From an uncultured Candidatus Saccharibacteria bacterium (GTDB lineage: Bacteria > Patescibacteriota > Minisyncoccia > Phycocordibacterales > JABMNX01), in contig CAZNRH010000002.1 in assembly GCA_964575755.1 (NCBI GenBank), forward strand, positions 70,351-134,350: a stretch of DNA of 64,000 nt. The letters are read 5' to 3'. The position numbers and the translations under genes are program-made. Within the stretch, counting starts at the first letter, position 1; each line of letters begins with the position of its first letter. Below the pieces are notes generated by a model. It made no database searches and had not been told where the DNA came from. It was given only the letters and a program-made list of their open reading frames with translations. This document shows positions 2,866 to 53,675 of the stretch, piece after piece.

Positions 2866-3011
2866 CAGCTTTGAAAACAATGTCGTTTTATTATATTAAA
2901 TTTTAAAGTACCAAAAACCTACCCTATCGCCTGTTTCGTTAGACTCAACAACGGCGATTTTCTGTTCCGCAGAAATCGGATGAAATATAAAGCAGTTTAT
3001 ATTTCATTCCC

Positions 3012-3029
3012 ACCACTTAGACGATCCGG
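3012..3029. repeat. 15-17 nt direct copy of the tRNA-Gln 5' end (ttagacgatccggca)
   Basis: Exact 15-nt match to 2851-2865, about 150 bp from the tRNA gene. Confidence 0.6.
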
Positions 3030-3101
3030 CAATTATTCTATTGTCTACTACAATATTAAATTACTACGTAATATTGCCTTAATTAAAGTATGTAATCAAG
3101 T

Positions 3102-4157
3102 CTATTTAAGTAACTTCACAAGAGCGAGCTCTACTGGAAGTTGAGGAATATATGAACGAGATATTGCATCATATGCTCCAAGGAGCTCATATAGTACAAC
3201 TGAATTAATATGAGACTCCTTGCCCTCACTTAATTTTTTAAGAAATTCAAAATCTTCTTTTACAAACTGCTCTTTAAACCCTTTTTCCATTTCTTTTGCA
3301 TATTTAAGGAGCAAGACCACACGTACTTTATGGAGTACTAGCTTCATAAATGTTTTTATATCAAGGTTCTGTGCCACTACGTCCCCTACAACCTCAAGTG
3401 CATTTTCAAGCTTTTTCTCTGCAATAGCTTCGATAAAATTATTAATAAGCTTCCCTTTTGGCGCCCCTGTTACAAGCTCTACTTCTTCTATGCTTACTTT
3501 ATTGTATTTTGAAGATGAAAGTATCTTTTGCAAAACTCCATGTGCATCACGAAACGAACCCTCTGCAAGCATCGCTATTAAATCCGCTGAAGCTGGCTCT
3601 AGTGAGAATTTTTCCTTCTTCGCGATATCCGTTATCATTTTTGCTAAAATTTGTCTGCTTGGTTTTTTAAATGTAAAACTCTGACATCGCGATATTATCG
3701 TCTCTGGTAACTTCCCTTCTTCTGTTGTTGCCAGCATAAACACAACATGCTTTGGTGGCTCTTCAAGTGTCTTTAAGAGTGCATTAAAAGCTTCTTTAGT
3801 TAGCATGTGTACCTCGTCAATAATATAAACTTTGTACGGAGACTCAAATGGAAGTGTGTGTACTGACTCACGAAGTGCTCGTATGTCATCAATACCACGA
3901 TTTGAAGCAGCATCGATTTCATACATATCATTCTGTGATGCTCCTATCGCTCGCGCCAGTATACGCGCAATACTTGTCTTCCCTGTTCCTCGAGAACCAG
4001 AGAAAAGATATGCGTGTGATATATTTCCCTGCTCTATTGCACCCTCAAGCACAGAGACAATATGCTCCTGCCCGAGCACATCTTTAAACTCCTCAGGACG
4101 ATATTTCCTATAGAGCGCTGTTTGTCTATTTTGGCTGGCATTAGAATCTGCTGACAT
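3102..4157 (-). CDS. dnaX: DNA polymerase III subunit gamma/tau (short form)
   Basis: AAA+ Walker A GSRGTGKTS. DEVH box IIDEVHML. Sensor region TIISRCQSFTFKKP. Confidence 0.9.
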   Translation of the reverse strand: MSADSNASQNRQTALYRKYRPEEFKDVLGQEHIVSVLEGAIEQGNISHAYLFSGSRGTGKTSIARILARAIGASQNDMYEIDAASNRGIDDIRALRESVHTLPFESPYKVYIIDEVHMLTKEAFNALLKTLEEPPKHVVFMLATTEEGKLPETIISRCQSFTFKKPSRQILAKMITDIAKKEKFSLEPASADLIAMLAEGSFRDAHGVLQKILSSSKYNKVSIEEVELVTGAPKGKLINNFIEAIAEKKLENALEVVGDVVAQNLDIKTFMKLVLHKVRVVLLLKYAKEMEKGFKEQFVKEDFEFLKKLSEGKESHINSVVLYELLGAYDAISRSYIPQLPVELALVKLLK

Positions 4158-36460: not shown

Positions 36461-36634
36461 GTTTTATAACTCGCGCACTTGGCGCACTTCTTCGTTACTT
36501 CGTTAAAAATATCAGTCGTCATATGTTCATATGACTTCTTTTATTTTTAACTTGCGCCTCGAACCGCATCAAAGTGCGCAAGTTCTAATATCAGAATCAA
36601 TTATTATTTCTCATAAACTCAACTAAAAATTGCT

Positions 36635-37267
36635 TTAAGAAGAAATCACAACAATATCCCCTATCTTGCCCTCGACATCTTTCTTCTTTATTGTGAGTTT
36701 CTCAACAGGATTCGCTTTATCTGCACCACCCTCCTTCAAAAATGCTTTCAGTGAATCCTTCTTACCAATACCATCGTAATGTATAGGGATTATTATATTC
36801 GCCTCAAGCTTAACACCAACTCCATGAGCTTCCGAAGGATTAAGAACTCCCTCACCACCAATTGGTACGAAAAGTATATCTATACCATCTACATCTTCAA
36901 AAATCTTTGGGTCAATCTTGCTTTCAGATAAAGCTCCAAGGAAGCAAAGGTTCATTCCCTCAAGTGTGACTATGTAAATAGTATTGGGGCGCTCTGACCC
37001 TCCGTACCCCGAAACTGACGGGAATCCTTTTATAAAAATTCTTTCAACCTCATATTCTCCAGGACCTTGAATAACAAACGGCTCATTGTCTCCACGTGTC
37101 ACACTCTTAACTCCATTGAAATCTTTGTCTGCTGTTGTTATGAGAACAATATCCGCACCAAACTTAGGCCTAGCAAGTTTAGACTCTTTAGAAATAGGGT
37201 TAAACACGATAGTTGTGTCACCTCTTGTAACTTTTATACATTCTCCTCCATGGTGTGTGATTATCAT
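36635..37267 (-). CDS. MBL-fold metallo-hydrolase
   Basis: Start set at MIITHHGGECIKV (beta-lactamase-fold HxHxDH-like region). The ORF-track version extends 30 codons upstream into a hairpin. Confidence 0.65.
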   Translation of the reverse strand: MIITHHGGECIKVTRGDTTIVFNPISKESKLARPKFGADIVLITTADKDFNGVKSVTRGDNEPFVIQGPGEYEVERIFIKGFPSVSGYGGSERPNTIYIVTLEGMNLCFLGALSESKIDPKIFEDVDGIDILFVPIGGEGVLNPSEAHGVGVKLEANIIIPIHYDGIGKKDSLKAFLKEGGADKANPVEKLTIKKKDVEGKIGDIVVISS

Positions 37268-37317
37268 GAGAATAGTATACAACCTGTTTGTCCAAGAGTG
37301 AAGCGATTGGCTACAAA

Positions 37318-37360
37318 CAGCAGTGCCCCAAACAATGTGCGAAGCTAAGCTTCGCACATT
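37318..37360. other. perfect 17-bp inverted repeat with 3-nt loop
   Basis: aaacaatgtgcgaagc-taa-gcttcgcacattgttt, with no adjacent T-run. Confidence 0.5.
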
Positions 37361-37492
37361 GTTTACGTGAACGTGACTCCTAAAAACTACAAGCTAACAC
37401 CTACAAGCTGTGATATTAAGTCATAGAAATAGTAACTTGACAAGTATTTTAAGTGTGCTAGTATATCTACATCCTGTTGTCATATTCGAAGC

Positions 37493-37960
37493 AGGATTAT
37501 ATTGTCCTTTGAAAGGGAGCACCAAAAAATGAATCGGCTTAATAGCTCGCAGAGCAGTTTGTATAAAAGTGAAAACATCACCGGCCTGATCGACGATCGC
37601 AACGGCGCCAGTCCCGGCAAATCCGCCGACCATTCAGCCATTACCGGTAAAGCTTTTTTGAACATGTCTCCCCAGGCCGCCGGCGCCGTCACGACCTGAC
37701 CGGCCGGTTACGTCAGTAGCAGTAAGATTACCGCCTAAGGATTGTCCTTTGTGCGTACAACAATCTTCTGTTGCGAAACTGAGCGTCACATGACGCTCCA
37801 CCCCCTACCGGTCACACGACCGGTGCAAGGAGCCCCCTCGGCGCTACCACGCCAACACGGCCCCAAGCCGGTCCTACGATCGGCACATGACTTAGGTCCA
37901 CCCATAAACCTGAGCCAGCCCCCCTTAGCTTCACAGCTTCGGGGGGTTTTTCTTTTTCCT
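37493..37960 (+). other. GC-rich compositional island; its left-boundary 14-nt repeat attgtcctttg recurs inside the island
   Basis: Strongly GC-rich against an AT-rich genome. The repeat aggatt(at)attgtcctttg is at 37491-37505 and 37735-37749. Small GC hairpins (ccggtcacacgaccgg, gagcgtcacatgacgctc). Ends with a cccccc...gggggg hairpin plus T-run near 37920-37955. Confidence 0.5.
37529..37699 (+). CDS. possible small ORF with host-like AT-rich 5' part and GC3-biased 3' part
   Basis: AGGGAG Shine-Dalgarno 9 nt upstream of the ATG. Third codon positions in the C-terminal half are nearly all G or C. 56 aa. Confidence 0.25.
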   Translation: MNRLNSSQSSLYKSENITGLIDDRNGASPGKSADHSAITGKAFLNMSPQAAGAVTT

Positions 37961-38293
37961 ACCTTCTCTCGAAACTACACCTACTTAACCCTTGTTAAAC
38001 TCCTAATTTTCCGATATAGTACTACAACTCATTTAGAGTATTATCAATTAACCATATGCGCGTTGCTAACCCTACTTATAGAGAACGGAGTAGGTTCAAA
38101 GATTTGCTTTTGGGTATATATTATTTGATTTTGAGCGAGACGAAGTAAAAAAGTTTGAAGCATATCAACAGATACGCTGAGAAATTTTTAACGAGTTCGT
38201 AGCCAAAATATAAGGATATAGAACCAGAATGAAATTTTTGAACATGCTTTCACTGAGTAAACAGCTAGTAGTACAACGCACATCACATACACA

Positions 38294-39496
38294 ATGTTAG
38301 GATTTGGAAAAAAGACTGACCATGAGGGGTCAGAATCAAAAAAAGATATTGAAGAAATTAAAACTGTTGTAGAAACGACACCAACTGAAGTAAAAGAAGT
38401 TAAAAAAATAAAGTCACCACTAGACACAAAGTCTAAGATGGATGACTTTTTAGAAGCGTCTGAGAACCCACCACAAATAGGTGACCTTATAGAAGGACCA
38501 GTACTTGCTATCGAACGCTCACATATCTATATCGACCTGCCTCCGTTTGGAACAGGTATTATTTATGGTCGTGAGTTTATGAACGCACGAGATATCTTAC
38601 GTAAAGTAAATGTTGGAGACAGTATCGCGGCAAAGGTTGTTGATACAGAGGGCATGGACGGATACATCGAGCTTTCACTTAAAGAAGCTAGGCAGGCACT
38701 TATCTGGGCAGAAGCGGAAGACGCAATAGCAAACAAAACAATACTAGAGCTTCCAATTAAAGACGCAAACAAAGGAGGTCTTATTATCGAATGGCAAGGA
38801 ATTCAAGGGTTCTTACCAGCTTCACAACTTAAGACTGAAAACTACCCCCGCGTTGAAGATGGAGACAAAGACCGTATCTTAGAAGAATTACGTAAACTAG
38901 TCGGAACAAAACTCGCAGTTACAGTAATCACCGCTGATCCAAAAGAAAACAAGATGATCTTCTCAGAGAAGAGCTCTAGCGAAATAGACAAGAAGGCTCT
39001 TACTGAAGAGTATAAGATTGGTGACGAGATTGAAGGAGTAATAACTGGCGCAGTCGAGTTTGGCGTATTCGTAAAACTTCGAGAAGGTCTTGAAGGGTTA
39101 GTACATATATCTGAAATAGACTGGGCACTTGTTGAAGATCCACGAACTATCTTTGAAATCGGAGAAAAGATGAAGGTGAAAGTAATAGACATAAACGAAG
39201 GTAAGATTTCACTATCCATCAAAGCGCTTAAAGATAATCCGTGGAAAGAAGCTGCTAAGAAATACAAGAAAGGAGATAGGGTTAACGGAGTCATCATCAA
39301 ATACAACAAGCACGGCGCTCTTGCCTCAATCGAGGAAGGTGTCGCAGGTCTTGTTCATATCTCTGAGTTTGAAACAGAAGAAAGCCTACACACAACTCTT
39401 GAACTAGGTAAAACATACGAGTTTACTATTACCCTCTTTGAGTCAGAGGAACAACGTATGACTCTTTCATTTAAGGATGAAAAGAAAGAAGAGTAA
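38294..39496 (+). CDS. rpsA: 30S ribosomal protein S1 (four S1 domains)
   Basis: Repeated S1 OB-fold motifs (GDLIEGPV..., GEIEGVITGAVEFGVFVKL, GDRVNGVIIKY...). Confidence 0.85.
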   Translation: MLGFGKKTDHEGSESKKDIEEIKTVVETTPTEVKEVKKIKSPLDTKSKMDDFLEASENPPQIGDLIEGPVLAIERSHIYIDLPPFGTGIIYGREFMNARDILRKVNVGDSIAAKVVDTEGMDGYIELSLKEARQALIWAEAEDAIANKTILELPIKDANKGGLIIEWQGIQGFLPASQLKTENYPRVEDGDKDRILEELRKLVGTKLAVTVITADPKENKMIFSEKSSSEIDKKALTEEYKIGDEIEGVITGAVEFGVFVKLREGLEGLVHISEIDWALVEDPRTIFEIGEKMKVKVIDINEGKISLSIKALKDNPWKEAAKKYKKGDRVNGVIIKYNKHGALASIEEGVAGLVHISEFETEESLHTTLELGKTYEFTITLFESEEQRMTLSFKDEKKEE

Positions 39497-39617: not shown

Positions 39618-39959
39618 ATGAATACACCTAAAAAAGGTAAGTATAGATGGTTAATTTTTAAAGACGGCAAAGATTGGCTTGGCGTGGTTTTGGAATTTAA
39701 CATCGTTATCTCTGGTTCGGATCCACAGGTTGTTGAAGTTGAACTGCAAGAAGCTGCGGTCGGGCACATTGAATCCGCTAAAAAATTAAAGGGTTTTAGA
39801 TCTACTCAAGTAAATAATATCCTTAACCAAGTCTCTGAAGATGAGTTCGAAGGACTTTGGTCTCACACAATGACCCAAAAATCCAGCGAAAATATTCTGT
39901 CTCCATTCTCTAGAAAAGATGTCTACAAAGCTGGTGTAGCAGACCTTAGCTTTGCTTAG
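39618..39959 (+). CDS. hicB: HicB-like antitoxin (UPF0150 / RNase H-like fold)
   Basis: YRWLIFKDGKDWLGVVLEFNIVISGSDPQVVEVELQEAAVGHIE matches the HicB N-domain pattern. Sits 3 nt upstream of hicA. Confidence 0.5.
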   Translation: MNTPKKGKYRWLIFKDGKDWLGVVLEFNIVISGSDPQVVEVELQEAAVGHIESAKKLKGFRSTQVNNILNQVSEDEFEGLWSHTMTQKSSENILSPFSRKDVYKAGVADLSFA

Positions 39960-39962
39960 TCT

Positions 39963-40196
39963 ATGTCTCGTAATAAATCTAATTGGACATTTAGAGAAGT
40001 ACGAAAATTTTTAACTAAACACGGATTCATACTTCACCATGTTCGAGGAAGCCACCATTTCTTTAGAGGATCCCAATCAGGCGAAATTCGTATGGTTCAT
40101 TGTCAATTTCACGGAAAAGATTCTATCCATCCTAAAACATTAAATTCTGTTATTAAACAATCCGGAATTTCAGAAGAAGAGTGGTTAAATAGATAA
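39963..40196 (+). CDS. hicA: HicA-family mRNA interferase toxin
   Basis: LTKHGFILHHVRGSHHFF...IKQSGI shows the YcfA/HicA dsRBD-like signature. Confidence 0.65.
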   Translation: MSRNKSNWTFREVRKFLTKHGFILHHVRGSHHFFRGSQSGEIRMVHCQFHGKDSIHPKTLNSVIKQSGISEEEWLNR

Positions 40197-41740: not shown

Positions 41741-42910
41741 ATGATACCAACTGCACAAACATCACATAAAACTACTGACAAGGCTATTAAAAATGCTACG
41801 GGTATAGCTGAGTACTATGGCTTCTTACCAACAGACCTGATCATGCCAGAGTATAACACCAAGAAGCGTTCTAAACTACCTCAACATACAAGCTATTCAA
41901 ATACTTTTGATAACGATTTAGCTTCTATCATACGTTCACATATTGAACACGGCCATACTAAACTTACGCAACCAACTCTTTTACATAACATCAACACTAA
42001 TCCTAAAGACTCAAATAAGGTTAATTTTGAGCTTCACATACTTGGCACATCGAGCAGTATCGCAGAAGCTACACTTATAAAGACAGCTCTTTCAATACTA
42101 GAGGACCTTGGTATATCTAATCACCGTGTATATATAAACAGTATCGGCGACAGAGATTCGACCACACGATTTACAAAAGAGCTTACTGACTACCTACGTA
42201 AAAACATGGGTGAAATGCCGTCTAGCTCGCGACAGGCAATGAAAAAAGATACCTTTACTGCATATGGCCAACTTCTTAAGAAAGGGCATGAACTATGCTC
42301 TAGCGCACCAAGTACTGTTGAGTTTCTTACCGAGGCAAGTCGGGCACATCTACAAGAAGTACTCGAATATCTAGAGATAACTGAAGTTGATTATGAACTT
42401 GACCCATCTATTATTGGACACTGTGACTGTTATTCAAAAACTATGTTCGAGATACGTGGAGTGCCAGACAACGAAGAAGACGAATTTATAGTATTTGCTC
42501 GTGGAGGCAGATATGACGAACTGTCTAAAAAAGCTTTCCGTAGGAGTGTCCCAGCCACAAGTATCGTATTTGAATATGAGAAAAAGGGACGTGTGTTGAA
42601 AACACCTAAAGCACCTAAAAATAAAAAACCAAAGTTTTACTTCATCCAGTTAGGCTCAGAAGCACAAATAAGAAGCTTCGCAGTTGTTGAAATGCTCCGT
42701 AAAACGAAGATGCCAATATATCAATCTCTGGGCAGAGACCAGTTGTCATCACAGCTTGAACTCGCTGGTGAGCTTGCGATACCCTACTGCATCATTATGG
42801 GACACAAAGAAGCTCTCGAAGGTACTGTTATTGTGCGTAATATAGATACAAGAGCACAAAATATAATCCCCTTGGAAGAACTCCCTAAATACCTTAAAAC
42901 AATCAAGTAA
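41741..42910 (+). CDS. histidyl-tRNA synthetase-like class II aaRS paralog (divergent catalytic motifs)
   Basis: GGRYD motif-3 signature and a C-terminal anticodon-binding-like domain. The N-terminal motifs are degenerate. Confidence 0.5.
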   Translation: MIPTAQTSHKTTDKAIKNATGIAEYYGFLPTDLIMPEYNTKKRSKLPQHTSYSNTFDNDLASIIRSHIEHGHTKLTQPTLLHNINTNPKDSNKVNFELHILGTSSSIAEATLIKTALSILEDLGISNHRVYINSIGDRDSTTRFTKELTDYLRKNMGEMPSSSRQAMKKDTFTAYGQLLKKGHELCSSAPSTVEFLTEASRAHLQEVLEYLEITEVDYELDPSIIGHCDCYSKTMFEIRGVPDNEEDEFIVFARGGRYDELSKKAFRRSVPATSIVFEYEKKGRVLKTPKAPKNKKPKFYFIQLGSEAQIRSFAVVEMLRKTKMPIYQSLGRDQLSSQLELAGELAIPYCIIMGHKEALEGTVIVRNIDTRAQNIIPLEELPKYLKTIK

Positions 42911-53396: not shown

Positions 53397-53675
53397 CAAA
53401 TTAAATGCCCCAACCCATGTGGGGCATTTAATTCTTATCTTTCCCCCGTTTCTCTTCCCTCTGTCTTGAAACTAAGTCTTCTACACTCTTACGACTCGTA
53501 AAATACGCCCCAAGCGCAGCACCCACAACAGCAACAATAATTAAAATAAGGATATTCATGGTTTTATTTTAGCATGACACCACAAAAACCTCCCCCGCAA
53601 TAGAAGGTGTTGTGGACAGGCAAAATAAACAGCCAGAGTACTCATGCTATTTAATTTTTATATTCTGGCAAAAAA

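Follow-up and report, generated by a model that had tools for sequence, protein, structure and literature searches.

What kind of element is the GC-rich island that lies between the gene of a metallo-beta-lactamase (MBL)-fold hydrolase (PF13483) and rpsA in contig CAZNRH010000002.1 of an uncultured bacterium? We analysed a stretch of 64,000 nucleotides of this contig (referred to below as the window), in which the island extends over positions 37470-37957. On the basis of rpsA, the organism was placed among Kaiserbacteria-like Paceibacteria (Patescibacteria), with the best genome match being 80% identical. A preliminary description of the island had offered three candidates: a horizontally acquired high-GC gene fragment fused to a host start, a structured non-coding RNA (ncRNA), and a precursor resembling those of ribosomally synthesized and post-translationally modified peptides (RiPPs). 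Judging from the signals in the sequence, we propose, with a probability of roughly 0.55, that the island is a fast-evolving and strongly expressed small-peptide gene, organised as an autonomous plus-strand unit with a structured and possibly regulatory tail. The unit belongs to no catalogued RNA or protein family. It is a new, lineage-wide cassette of the Candidate Phyla Radiation (CPR), fixed in its chromosomal position, in which a conserved shell of expression signals surrounds a compositionally aberrant and hypervariable payload.

Architecture of the unit

The GC-rich character of the spacer between the MBL gene and rpsA, already noticed in the preliminary description, was confirmed by scans of the window at two scales. 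The 17 segments of 200 nt with the highest GC content all fell inside 37501-37821, with a maximum of 0.605 versus a mean of 0.375 for the window, and on the 100-nt scale the segment 37531-37980 (450 nt, GC 0.56) was the only one longer than 230 nt that exceeded 0.52. The interval 37470-37957 was the most GC-rich part of the window. A promoter and a terminator bracket the island exactly. The features are as follows, with the 5' untranslated region abbreviated as 5' UTR, the Shine-Dalgarno sequence as SD, open reading frames as ORFs, small ORFs as sORFs, the minimum free energy as MFE, and the GC content of the three codon positions as GC1, GC2 and GC3:

37437..37464, plus strand: promoter, TTGACA, 16-nt spacer, TAGTAT, the -10 being extended by a TG that stands one base before it; agreement with the consensus at 10 of 12 positions in addition to the TG
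37471..37497, plus strand: putative 5'-terminal stem-loop, AUCCUG / CAGGAU, at the predicted transcript start (RNAfold)
37493..37511, plus strand: first copy of the 5'-UTR motif, AGGATT-atatt-GTCCTTTG, in RNA form AGGAUU..GUCCUUUG (shuffle test)
37513..37519, plus strand: SD, AAGGGAG, ending 9 nt before the ATG (read from the sequence)
37529..37699, plus strand: small ORF of 56 codons plus TGA (stop codon at 37697-37699), MNRLNSSQSSLYKSENITGLIDDRNGASPGKSADHSAITGKAFLNMSPQAAGAVTT (ORF translation, GC3)
37575..37714, plus strand: GC-rich long-range helices around the later half of the ORF, including the stop codon (inverted repeats, MFE structure)
37738..37751, plus strand: second copy of the 5'-UTR motif, AGGATTGTCCTTTG, without a promoter and with neither a good SD nor an in-frame start after it
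37781..37884, plus strand: array of short GC hairpins, of 7 bp at 37781-98, 37807-24 and 37867-84 and of 4 bp at 37840-53, with C/A-rich linkers (folding)
37794..37895, plus strand: startless frame of 33 codons plus TAG, RSTPYRSHDRCKEPPRRYHANTAPSRSYDRHMT; GC1/2/3 0.58/0.64/0.85
37919..37957, plus strand: intrinsic terminator, C6...G6 clamp (37919-37946) with an inner AGCU/AGCU stem, then UUUUUCUUUUU (folding)

The TTGACA..TGnTAnnnT pattern had only 3 matches in 64 kb, the island promoter being one of them, and transcription is predicted to start near 37470. TTGACAA and TGnTA were kept in the other ORF-carrying units described below (loci compared with the window are given as L numbers) and in L006b, while L006a has TTGACA-17-TATAGT without the TG. 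When the 5' UTRs were folded with RNAfold, a hairpin was found within the first few nucleotides in nine of the ten ORF-carrying units. The tenth, L166, has the same AUCC/GGAU arms, but the MFE fold pairs them otherwise. The arms vary between units, with A-U, G-C or G-U at the first pair. The 5'-terminal stem-loop is thus a predicted feature of the transcript.

The motif AGGAT(T)..GTTCTTT was found between the 5' hairpin and the SD also in L086, L165a, L165b and L167, with variants in L169, L172 and L042, and it was followed by an SD-like GGAGG, GGGAG, GAGG or GGGGA ahead of the start codon in all ten ORF-carrying units. In the window, the pattern AGGATT..GTCCTTTG matched twice, as AGGATTATATTGTCCTTTG at 37493-37511 and as AGGATTGTCCTTTG at 37738-37751, compared with 0.00 matches expected from 100 dinucleotide shuffles. 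These are the two copies of the direct repeat that had been proposed to bound the island on its left side. Both copies exist, but the coordinates originally given for them (37491-37505 and 37735-37749) deviate by 2-3 nt, and the length of the first copy had been understated. As a boundary mark of an inserted segment the repeat does not hold, since it represents a conserved 5'-UTR motif of the cassette family, which was doubled here by a likely decayed tandem copy. At the other end, the previously described G/C-clamp hairpin with a T-run was found as expected (C6/G6 at 37919-37946, then UUUUUCUUUUU), and in a stretch of 43 nt its identity to the L167 terminator was 86%.

Related units at the same chromosomal position

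In blastn and nhmmer comparisons of the island with 160 rpsA loci, only contigs of the same population matched, and the homology of the family was visible only through synteny and the shell. In nine relatives, with MBL proteins 77-86% identical to that of the window, the MBL-rpsA slot is occupied by a single unit or a pair of units that have this shell. Among them are L086 (rpsA 82%) and, reached through MBL homologues, L165, L166, L167, L168, L169-171 and L172. The ORF-carrying set comprised ten units: those of the window, L086, L165 (two), L166, L167, L168 (two), L169 and L172. Each unit combines a TTGACAA..TGnTAnnnT promoter, a 5'-terminal hairpin that usually ends in AGGAU, in most cases a (U)GUUCUU(U/C) motif, an SD-like element, an ATG or GTG start, a GC-rich ORF (17-56 codons long, but 172 in L172), a structured tail of 93-432 nt and a strong terminator. 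Shell similarity between units was significant for the terminator of the window against L167 (E = 9e-8), for the 5' UTR of L165a against L169 (E = 5e-10) and for L166 against L168b (E = 1e-7). The payloads (peptide plus tail), on the other hand, were nearly unalignable. L165 and L168 contain two complete tandem units each, and the two units of L168 share a 3' block.

Units with the same shell were also found upstream of rpsA in the more distant L089 (rpsA 73%), L140, L072, L110 and L042. In a scan of 75 AT-rich Paceibacteria loci, about 10 of the 21 independent GC-rich segments with GC3 periodicity fell 300-1200 nt upstream of rpsA, a band that accounted for roughly 1/7 of the sequence scanned.

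Several of these loci deserve a separate description. In L172, the minus strand of the locus (1720-2238) encodes a 172-aa protein with a signal peptide and a GC3 of 0.91 in a locus of 0.45 GC, located behind the cassette 5' UTR; this protein matched only itself among 5.8 billion (5.8e9) protein clusters. As in L172, the same slot of L042 encodes a protein with a signal peptide. In a Kaiserbacteria genome (L006), positions 2974-3313 and 3410-3781 contain GC-rich units of ~340-370 nt with a promoter and a terminator in the same slot, with no ORF and no Rfam match, which makes them candidates for novel ncRNAs. A second pair of small ORFs upstream of rpsA, unrelated to the first, was noticed at L140 2511-2651 and L072 3543-3626. 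These ORFs have a common N-terminal A(R/T)AGPAR(D/H) and are located behind similar promoters and G(T)TTCTTT-type leaders.

Coding potential of the small ORF

The ORF of the window starts 92 nt past the -35 element, and in all ten ORF-carrying units the SD and the ATG or GTG are positioned 82-98 nt past it. Its GC1/2/3 values are 0.46/0.52/0.66. For 41 long ORFs of the window, the host GC3 was 0.287 (standard deviation 0.045, maximum 0.40), so that the small ORF is 8 standard deviations higher. Among the first 15 codons, 7 have G or C in the third position, and among the last 41 there are 30 such codons. The change of codon style that had been pointed out earlier is therefore real, and it follows a good SD as described; however, the claim that the later codons end almost uniformly in G or C was overstated.

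The frame opened by the SD was the one with the highest third-position GC in all ten units, with GC3 of 0.58-0.91 and GC1 and GC2 mostly of 0.45-0.55, and the ORF of L089 reached a GC3 of 0.98. With the periodicity taken as given, such agreement would be expected by chance with a probability of ~(1/3)^10, a value that applies to independent trials, which these related units are not. In sliding windows, the phase of third-position GC matched the ORF frame in the window unit, L086, L165a, L168a, L169 and L172, and in L165a, L168a, L169 and L172 the periodicity was restricted to the ORFs. This frame periodicity, together with the signal-peptide ORF of 172 codons that stands behind the same 5' UTR in L172, argues for translation. 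A translated small peptide at 37529-37699 is thus likely but unproven.

The product would be a hydrophilic peptide. Neither the window sORF nor the other sORFs submitted matched a family in Pfam-A or NCBIfam at curated cut-offs, and the window product had no hits among 1.84 billion (1.84e9) protein representatives. A profile of 7 sORFs recovered only one of its own members in a large protein search.

A number of observations speak against a conserved and translated peptide gene and have to be weighed. Pairwise phmmer comparisons among the sORFs and six-frame translations of all loci gave no cross-hit at E <= 0.05, so we do not claim a statistically supported peptide family. The MAFFT alignment of the sORFs showed 13-25% identity, and the recurring motifs (GLIDD/DRGSG, F-L-N and a C-terminal AAG..T beside the stop codon embedded in a hairpin) were seen by eye only and are suggestive at most. 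AlphaFold2 gave no confident fold for the window sORF (pLDDT 57.6, no secondary structure). The periodicity of the window ORF itself is modest, and a 56-codon open frame in GC-rich DNA is not rare by chance. Moreover, long open frames are biased towards frames with C in the third position, meaning that part of the 10/10 agreement depends on the periodicity being genuine, and the mutual relatedness of the ten units reduces its weight further. Outside the ORF, the shuffle control for the 5' hairpin was weak (9/10 observed versus ~6 expected). The two units of L006 have the shell but no ORF, which indicates that an RNA-only version can exist. Finally, L005, the closest rpsA relative (80%), has a 275-nt spacer without any unit; the unit is therefore dispensable.

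On the opposite strand of the island, ORFs of 70 aa and of 42+ aa (both called in L004) were considered as coding sequences and rejected: neither matches a family or has a start that is conserved, and both run antisense to the promoter-terminator pair. The gene calls of L004 at 2-130 and 131-343 correspond to the minus strand of the window at 37421-37801; they are probably spurious, a result of the high GC content.

The structured tail and a probable relic of a second unit

The preliminary description had mentioned a high density of short GC hairpins. We confirmed hairpins at four sites, and the folding energy was far below that of shuffled sequences, with z = -5.65 for the whole unit and z = -6.36 for 37700-37955. 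The inverted repeats I5-I7 (37575-86/37702-13, 37597-609/37682-94 and the palindrome 37693-37714) were paired in the MFE structure, in which they enclose the end of the ORF. By eye, a hairpin spanning the stop codon was recognised also in L086, L169 and L168a. The 3' regions of 12 units had z values from -1.4 to -8.5 versus shuffles. C exceeded G in the 3' region of most units, and runs of C5-7 outside the stems were likewise present in most of them.

The second half of the island is most likely a decayed second tandem unit, which now serves as the 3' tail of the first one. It comprises the second copy of the 5'-UTR motif and the startless frame 37794-37895, which shows a strong periodicity like that of coding sequence but has an in-frame TGA directly upstream and an ATG at 37790 that is one base out of frame. 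We read it as a relic because the relatives L165 and L168 carry two complete tandem units, and a decayed second unit would explain the direct repeat. A 1-nt assembly error in the segment 37764-37831 may hide an intact second ORF, although the missing SD argues against this.

Alternative explanations

The alternative that survives best, although we consider it unlikely, is a purely non-coding structured small RNA of ~490 nt, in which the SD, ATG and ORF would be incidental or would only load ribosomes. Such an RNA could use its hairpin array and C/A-rich linkers to pair with G-rich ribosome-binding sites or to titrate an RNA-binding protein. The strong excess of structure is consistent with this explanation, and so are the predominance of C over G with unpaired C5-7 runs in most units, the L006 units with their promoter-terminator shell and no ORF, and the peptides, which are not significantly conserved and are predicted to be unstructured. 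It does not account, however, for the SD and ATG at a fixed distance in 10/10 units, for a third-position GC periodicity (up to 0.85-0.98) that follows the ATG frame exactly, or for the 172-aa signal-peptide ORF behind the same 5' UTR in L172. Besides, we could define neither a conserved sequence nor a covarying helix for the tails. Known RNA families do not help either: Rfam 15 at the gathering threshold gave no match in 37250-38300 (including RNase P, tmRNA, SRP RNA, 6S, riboswitches and OLE/GOLLD/ROOL/HEARO/raiA), only terminator-like matches of 15-19 bits versus thresholds of 39-144 appeared with E up to 10, 16 related loci gave no match, and ARAGORN found 0 tRNA or tmRNA genes in 36500-39000. 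The earlier suggestion of a structured ncRNA thus agrees with the 3' half, which is strongly structured and without an Rfam family, but not with the 5' half and its probable coding ORF.

A broader possibility, which we hold to be somewhat less probable still, is that the MBL-rpsA spacer is a dedicated expression slot refilled with GC3-rich peptide genes and structured RNAs, either as a cradle of orphan genes or as a hypervariable effector locus, with a dual-function transcript similar to RNAIII. If this were true, the refilling would proceed by duplication, decay and local GC-biased change in ultra-small episymbiotic bacteria.

It is improbable that the unit encodes the precursor of a secreted or modified peptide (RiPP- or bacteriocin-like), made hypervariable by diversifying selection in interactions with a host or competitors. 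The peptides are short, hydrophilic and rich in G/A/S/T/N/D, with an extreme turnover behind a conserved shell, and L172 and L042 encode signal-peptide proteins in the same slot. The tendency of assemblies to break inside the island would fit population heterogeneity, yet the overlaps of independent assemblies were 100% identical. The unit is flanked by rpsA and by the MBL hydrolase gene, the latter being present also where relatives lack the unit, and not by any gene for modification, transport or immunity. In the sORFs, we recognised no signal peptide, no core rich in Cys or otherwise typical and no leader of the double-glycine or another conserved type, and they gave no match to a precursor family in NCBIfam or Pfam. 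In the alignment, only ATGAATCGG (MNR) was common to the window and L169, with no consistent leader. The RiPP-like precursor proposed in the preliminary description therefore found nothing in its support, as neither a dedicated modifying enzyme beside the unit nor a conserved leader could be demonstrated.

The origin of the island in a recent fusion of coding DNA from a high-GC organism to a host start is very improbable, even though the anomaly in codon style that led to this idea is real. The codons preferred (GGC, GCC, ACC, CGC, GAC) and the GC3 of 0.66 in the ORF and 0.85 in the startless frame, compared with 0.29 in the host, would suit a foreign source, and so would the lack of the unit in L005, the closest relative by rpsA. 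However, nine relatives that share only 77-86% MBL identity have units in this slot with native expression signals of the same kind (promoter, 5' UTR and terminator), with one further case (L089) at 73% rpsA identity, and high GC3 persists in all of them, while a foreign fragment should drift to the host composition. No homologue was found in the 1.84e9 or 5.8e9 protein sets or in phage, plasmid and viral collections: blastn of the island against phage and plasmid collections gave no match, and neither a hairpin segment nor the L165/L169 5' UTR was found when viral contigs were scanned for exact patterns. There is also no mobility gene, inverted terminal repeat or target-site duplication, and the direct repeat is the 5'-UTR motif. 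Thus, among the marks of a high-GC donor, the anomalous composition was found, whereas a donor homologue and presence in a single lineage were not, the unit being absent only in L005 among the relatives compared, and anomalous composition alone does not establish transfer. As diverged units in genomes of 0.37-0.56 GC share the high GC content, native signals and a fixed slot, and as the tails are equally GC-rich and no donor homologue was found, we do not regard the island as a leftover of transfer. The high GC content, made up of NNC/NNG codons plus GC hairpins, must be actively maintained in the payload. Either selection for a very stable and highly expressed RNA or locally GC-biased repair or recombination, at a variable hot spot, would account for this. 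Selection for a stable and compact RNA fits the tails, nearly all of which are much more stable than shuffles without having a conserved sequence.

Even less probable is a role as an rpsA leader or attenuator, in which a leader peptide and a terminator would control read-through into rpsA. The unit is indeed on the same strand and directly upstream of rpsA, with a small ORF followed by a terminator, but rpsA has its own promoter-like site (37992-38020), downstream of which lies a leader element conserved in relatives (GTTGCTAACCCTAC..AGAGAAC, 38062-38086) that is retained in L005 without the unit. In addition, the C6/G6-clamp terminator is strong, no anti-terminator is visible, and in relatives the complete units, of which there are one or two, are each equipped with a separate promoter and terminator.

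A type I toxin-antitoxin system does not fit, as the peptide is hydrophilic and no minus-strand promoter-like site was found within 37470-37957.

The least probable of all is an assembly artefact, that is, a chimeric join or a collapsed sequence in the metagenome contig. Contig VAPM010777544.1 (L004), an independent assembly from the same population, covers the MBL gene and the island to 37763 with 100% identity, and VAPM010634848.1 (L001) together with a Logan contig (L002) covers 37832 onward into rpsA, also with 100% identity. Hence, both junctions between the island and the host are reproduced in independent assemblies, with each half joined to its correct flank, and 37764-37831 (68 nt) rests on the window contig alone; a search for another assembly bridging this segment, by means of the minus-strand 55-aa ORF, found no such record. 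Three independent contigs ending inside or at the edge of the island (37763, 37832 and 37974) could point to an artefact, but the order MBL-unit-rpsA is seen again in nine other genomes, so an error could affect no more than the 68-nt bridge with its 1-nt frame offset at 37793. The large-scale join is certainly correct, given that relatives show this order of genes as well.

Independent short-read contigs were found to end in or at the edge of the MBL-rpsA spacer more generally: at 37763 in L004, at 37832 in L001 and L002, at 37974 in L003, and also in L167, L170, L171 and L085. Candidate causes of these breaks are strain heterogeneity and a drop in coverage due to GC content or hairpins.

Neighbouring genes and other features of the window

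The genes around the unit encode the MBL-fold hydrolase, a 141-aa unknown protein, gyrA, rpsA, the HicA toxin with a preceding 113-aa ORF, and pth. The MBL gene is divergent and lies on the other side of the unit from rpsA. Between the MBL start and the island promoter, there is a perfect 17-bp inverted repeat (AAACAATGTGCGAAGCT A AGCTTCGCACATTGTTT) at 37330-37364, which could be an insulating bidirectional terminator or an operator; in L165, L166, L168 and L172, different palindromes are present at this position. Closer to the promoter, ~30 nt upstream of its -35 element, a tandem 14-nt direct repeat (CTAAAAACTACAAG / CTAACACCTACAAG) at 37380-37407 may be a regulator-binding or UP-like element.

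The 5' leader of rpsA contains the conserved element GTTGCTAACCCTAC(N4-5)AGAGAAC (38062-38086), then ..GGTAG(N)ACAAC just ahead of the start codon (38262-38285). It was found in the window, L005, L086, L165, L166, L168, L169 and L172. The ends of the leader can pair (GUUG..CAAC and CCUAC..GUAGG), which suggests that they may form an autoregulatory structure for S1. Only in the window, an extra insertion of ~150 nt (~38095-38255) separates the two halves of the leader, whereas relatives are without it. We also considered a CCUAC pairing between the tail of the unit and the conserved rpsA leader and rejected it, as the motif was not common to other units.

The HicA gene (77 aa, PF07927) is located between rpsA and pth (window 39618-40196), and the 113-aa ORF that precedes it, which has no Pfam hit, could encode a HicB-type antitoxin; the pair is present also in L001-L003. 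Another observation concerns the palindromic motif AGCCAGAGTACTC(TGGCT), which occurs 4 times in the window versus 0.03 expected, with sites including 2750-2767, 41810-41822 and 53631-53643. Related forms were seen upstream of the MBL gene in L086, L165 (2544-2556) and L166. This motif is a candidate operator or a candidate site related to restriction-modification.

Proposed mode of action

For the small-peptide gene that we favour, the following course of events can be proposed. The near-consensus promoter, of the sigma-70 type with an extended -10, would start a ~490-nt transcript at ~37470, in a constitutive and strong manner. The 5' stem-loop would block decay that depends on the 5' end and thereby give a long-lived mRNA. 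The U/C-rich motif, for which a weak pairing to the SD is possible (UCCUUU to AAAGGG here, UUCUU to SDs of the GGAGG type in relatives), may tune initiation, and the strong SD would direct translation of a hydrophilic and probably disordered peptide of 56 residues that is under rapid turnover. About 250 nt of stable hairpins would follow the ORF, ahead of the intrinsic terminator, and with its unpaired C-rich runs this tail could also act in trans, like the 3' domain of RNAIII. What the sequences show is the architecture, the synteny, the conserved shell, the frame-specific GC periodicity, the excess of structure and the lack of matches in the libraries searched; transcription, translation, stabilisation at the 5' end, masking of the SD and any role of the peptide or the tail are proposals. 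The cassette family is restricted to a lineage of Kaiserbacteria-like Paceibacteria and fixed in the MBL-rpsA slot. Its expression shell is conserved, and its payload turns over very fast, with tandem duplication, decay and loss.

The genomes of CPR bacteria are tiny, few of their regulators are known, and hardly any small RNAs or small proteins have been described in them; our literature search for GC-rich small RNAs or small proteins in Patescibacteria found nothing relevant. At this locus, the expression signals are conserved across a clade while the product has changed almost beyond recognition, with a base composition opposite to that of the genome. If it is expressed, the locus offers a testable case of a dual-function RNA/small-peptide regulator or of a site of rapid gene birth and death. 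It also carries a warning for annotation: gene callers placed spurious minus-strand ORFs on the island, assemblers tend to break at it, and methods based on composition would report a horizontal transfer, contrary to what the comparison of relatives indicates.

Comparison with known systems

The small, hypervariable ORF in a strongly signalled and independent transcription unit resembles RiPP and bacteriocin precursors. Unlike them, the unit has no adjacent genes for maturation, export or immunity, no recognisable leader or core and no family match. With type I toxin-antitoxin systems it shares a small ORF, a structured 5' UTR, a U/C-rich element able to pair with the SD and an isolated position in an intergenic region; however, its peptide is hydrophilic and is not a membrane helix, and no antisense promoter was found inside the unit.

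Long-lived mRNAs such as those with the E. coli ompA and B. subtilis aprE leaders have stabilising stem-loops at their 5' ends. For nearly every unit described here, the predicted transcript likewise has a stem-loop in its first few nucleotides, followed by a strong SD, although here the transcription start is a prediction and the shuffle control was weak.

Lineage-restricted orphan genes, possibly of de novo origin, are similar to the unit in having no homologue outside a narrow clade and in being short and predicted as disordered, and the gain, duplication, decay and loss of the units are equally rapid. Whereas orphan genes usually have the composition of their genome, the units have GC3 of 0.58-0.98 in genomes of 0.37-0.56 GC, and it is their shell and chromosomal slot that are conserved, not the product.

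Dual-function small RNAs are represented by Staphylococcus aureus RNAIII/hld, SgrS/SgrT and Bacillus SR1/SR1P. RNAIII is ~514 nt long, and its C-rich elements pair with Shine-Dalgarno regions. Like these RNAs, the unit corresponds to a (predicted) transcript of a few hundred nucleotides with its own promoter and terminator, a small ORF at the 5' side and stable hairpins with C-rich single strands at the 3' side. It differs from them in having no sequence or Rfam relationship and no quorum-sensing or regulatory context. Its C-rich runs are mostly in linkers and not in hairpin loops, the tail sequence is not conserved between relatives, and translation and any base-pairing are hypothetical. In its presumed mode of action, the unit comes closest to a dual-function small RNA or to an orphan gene for a small protein whose transcript is stabilised by a 5' hairpin.

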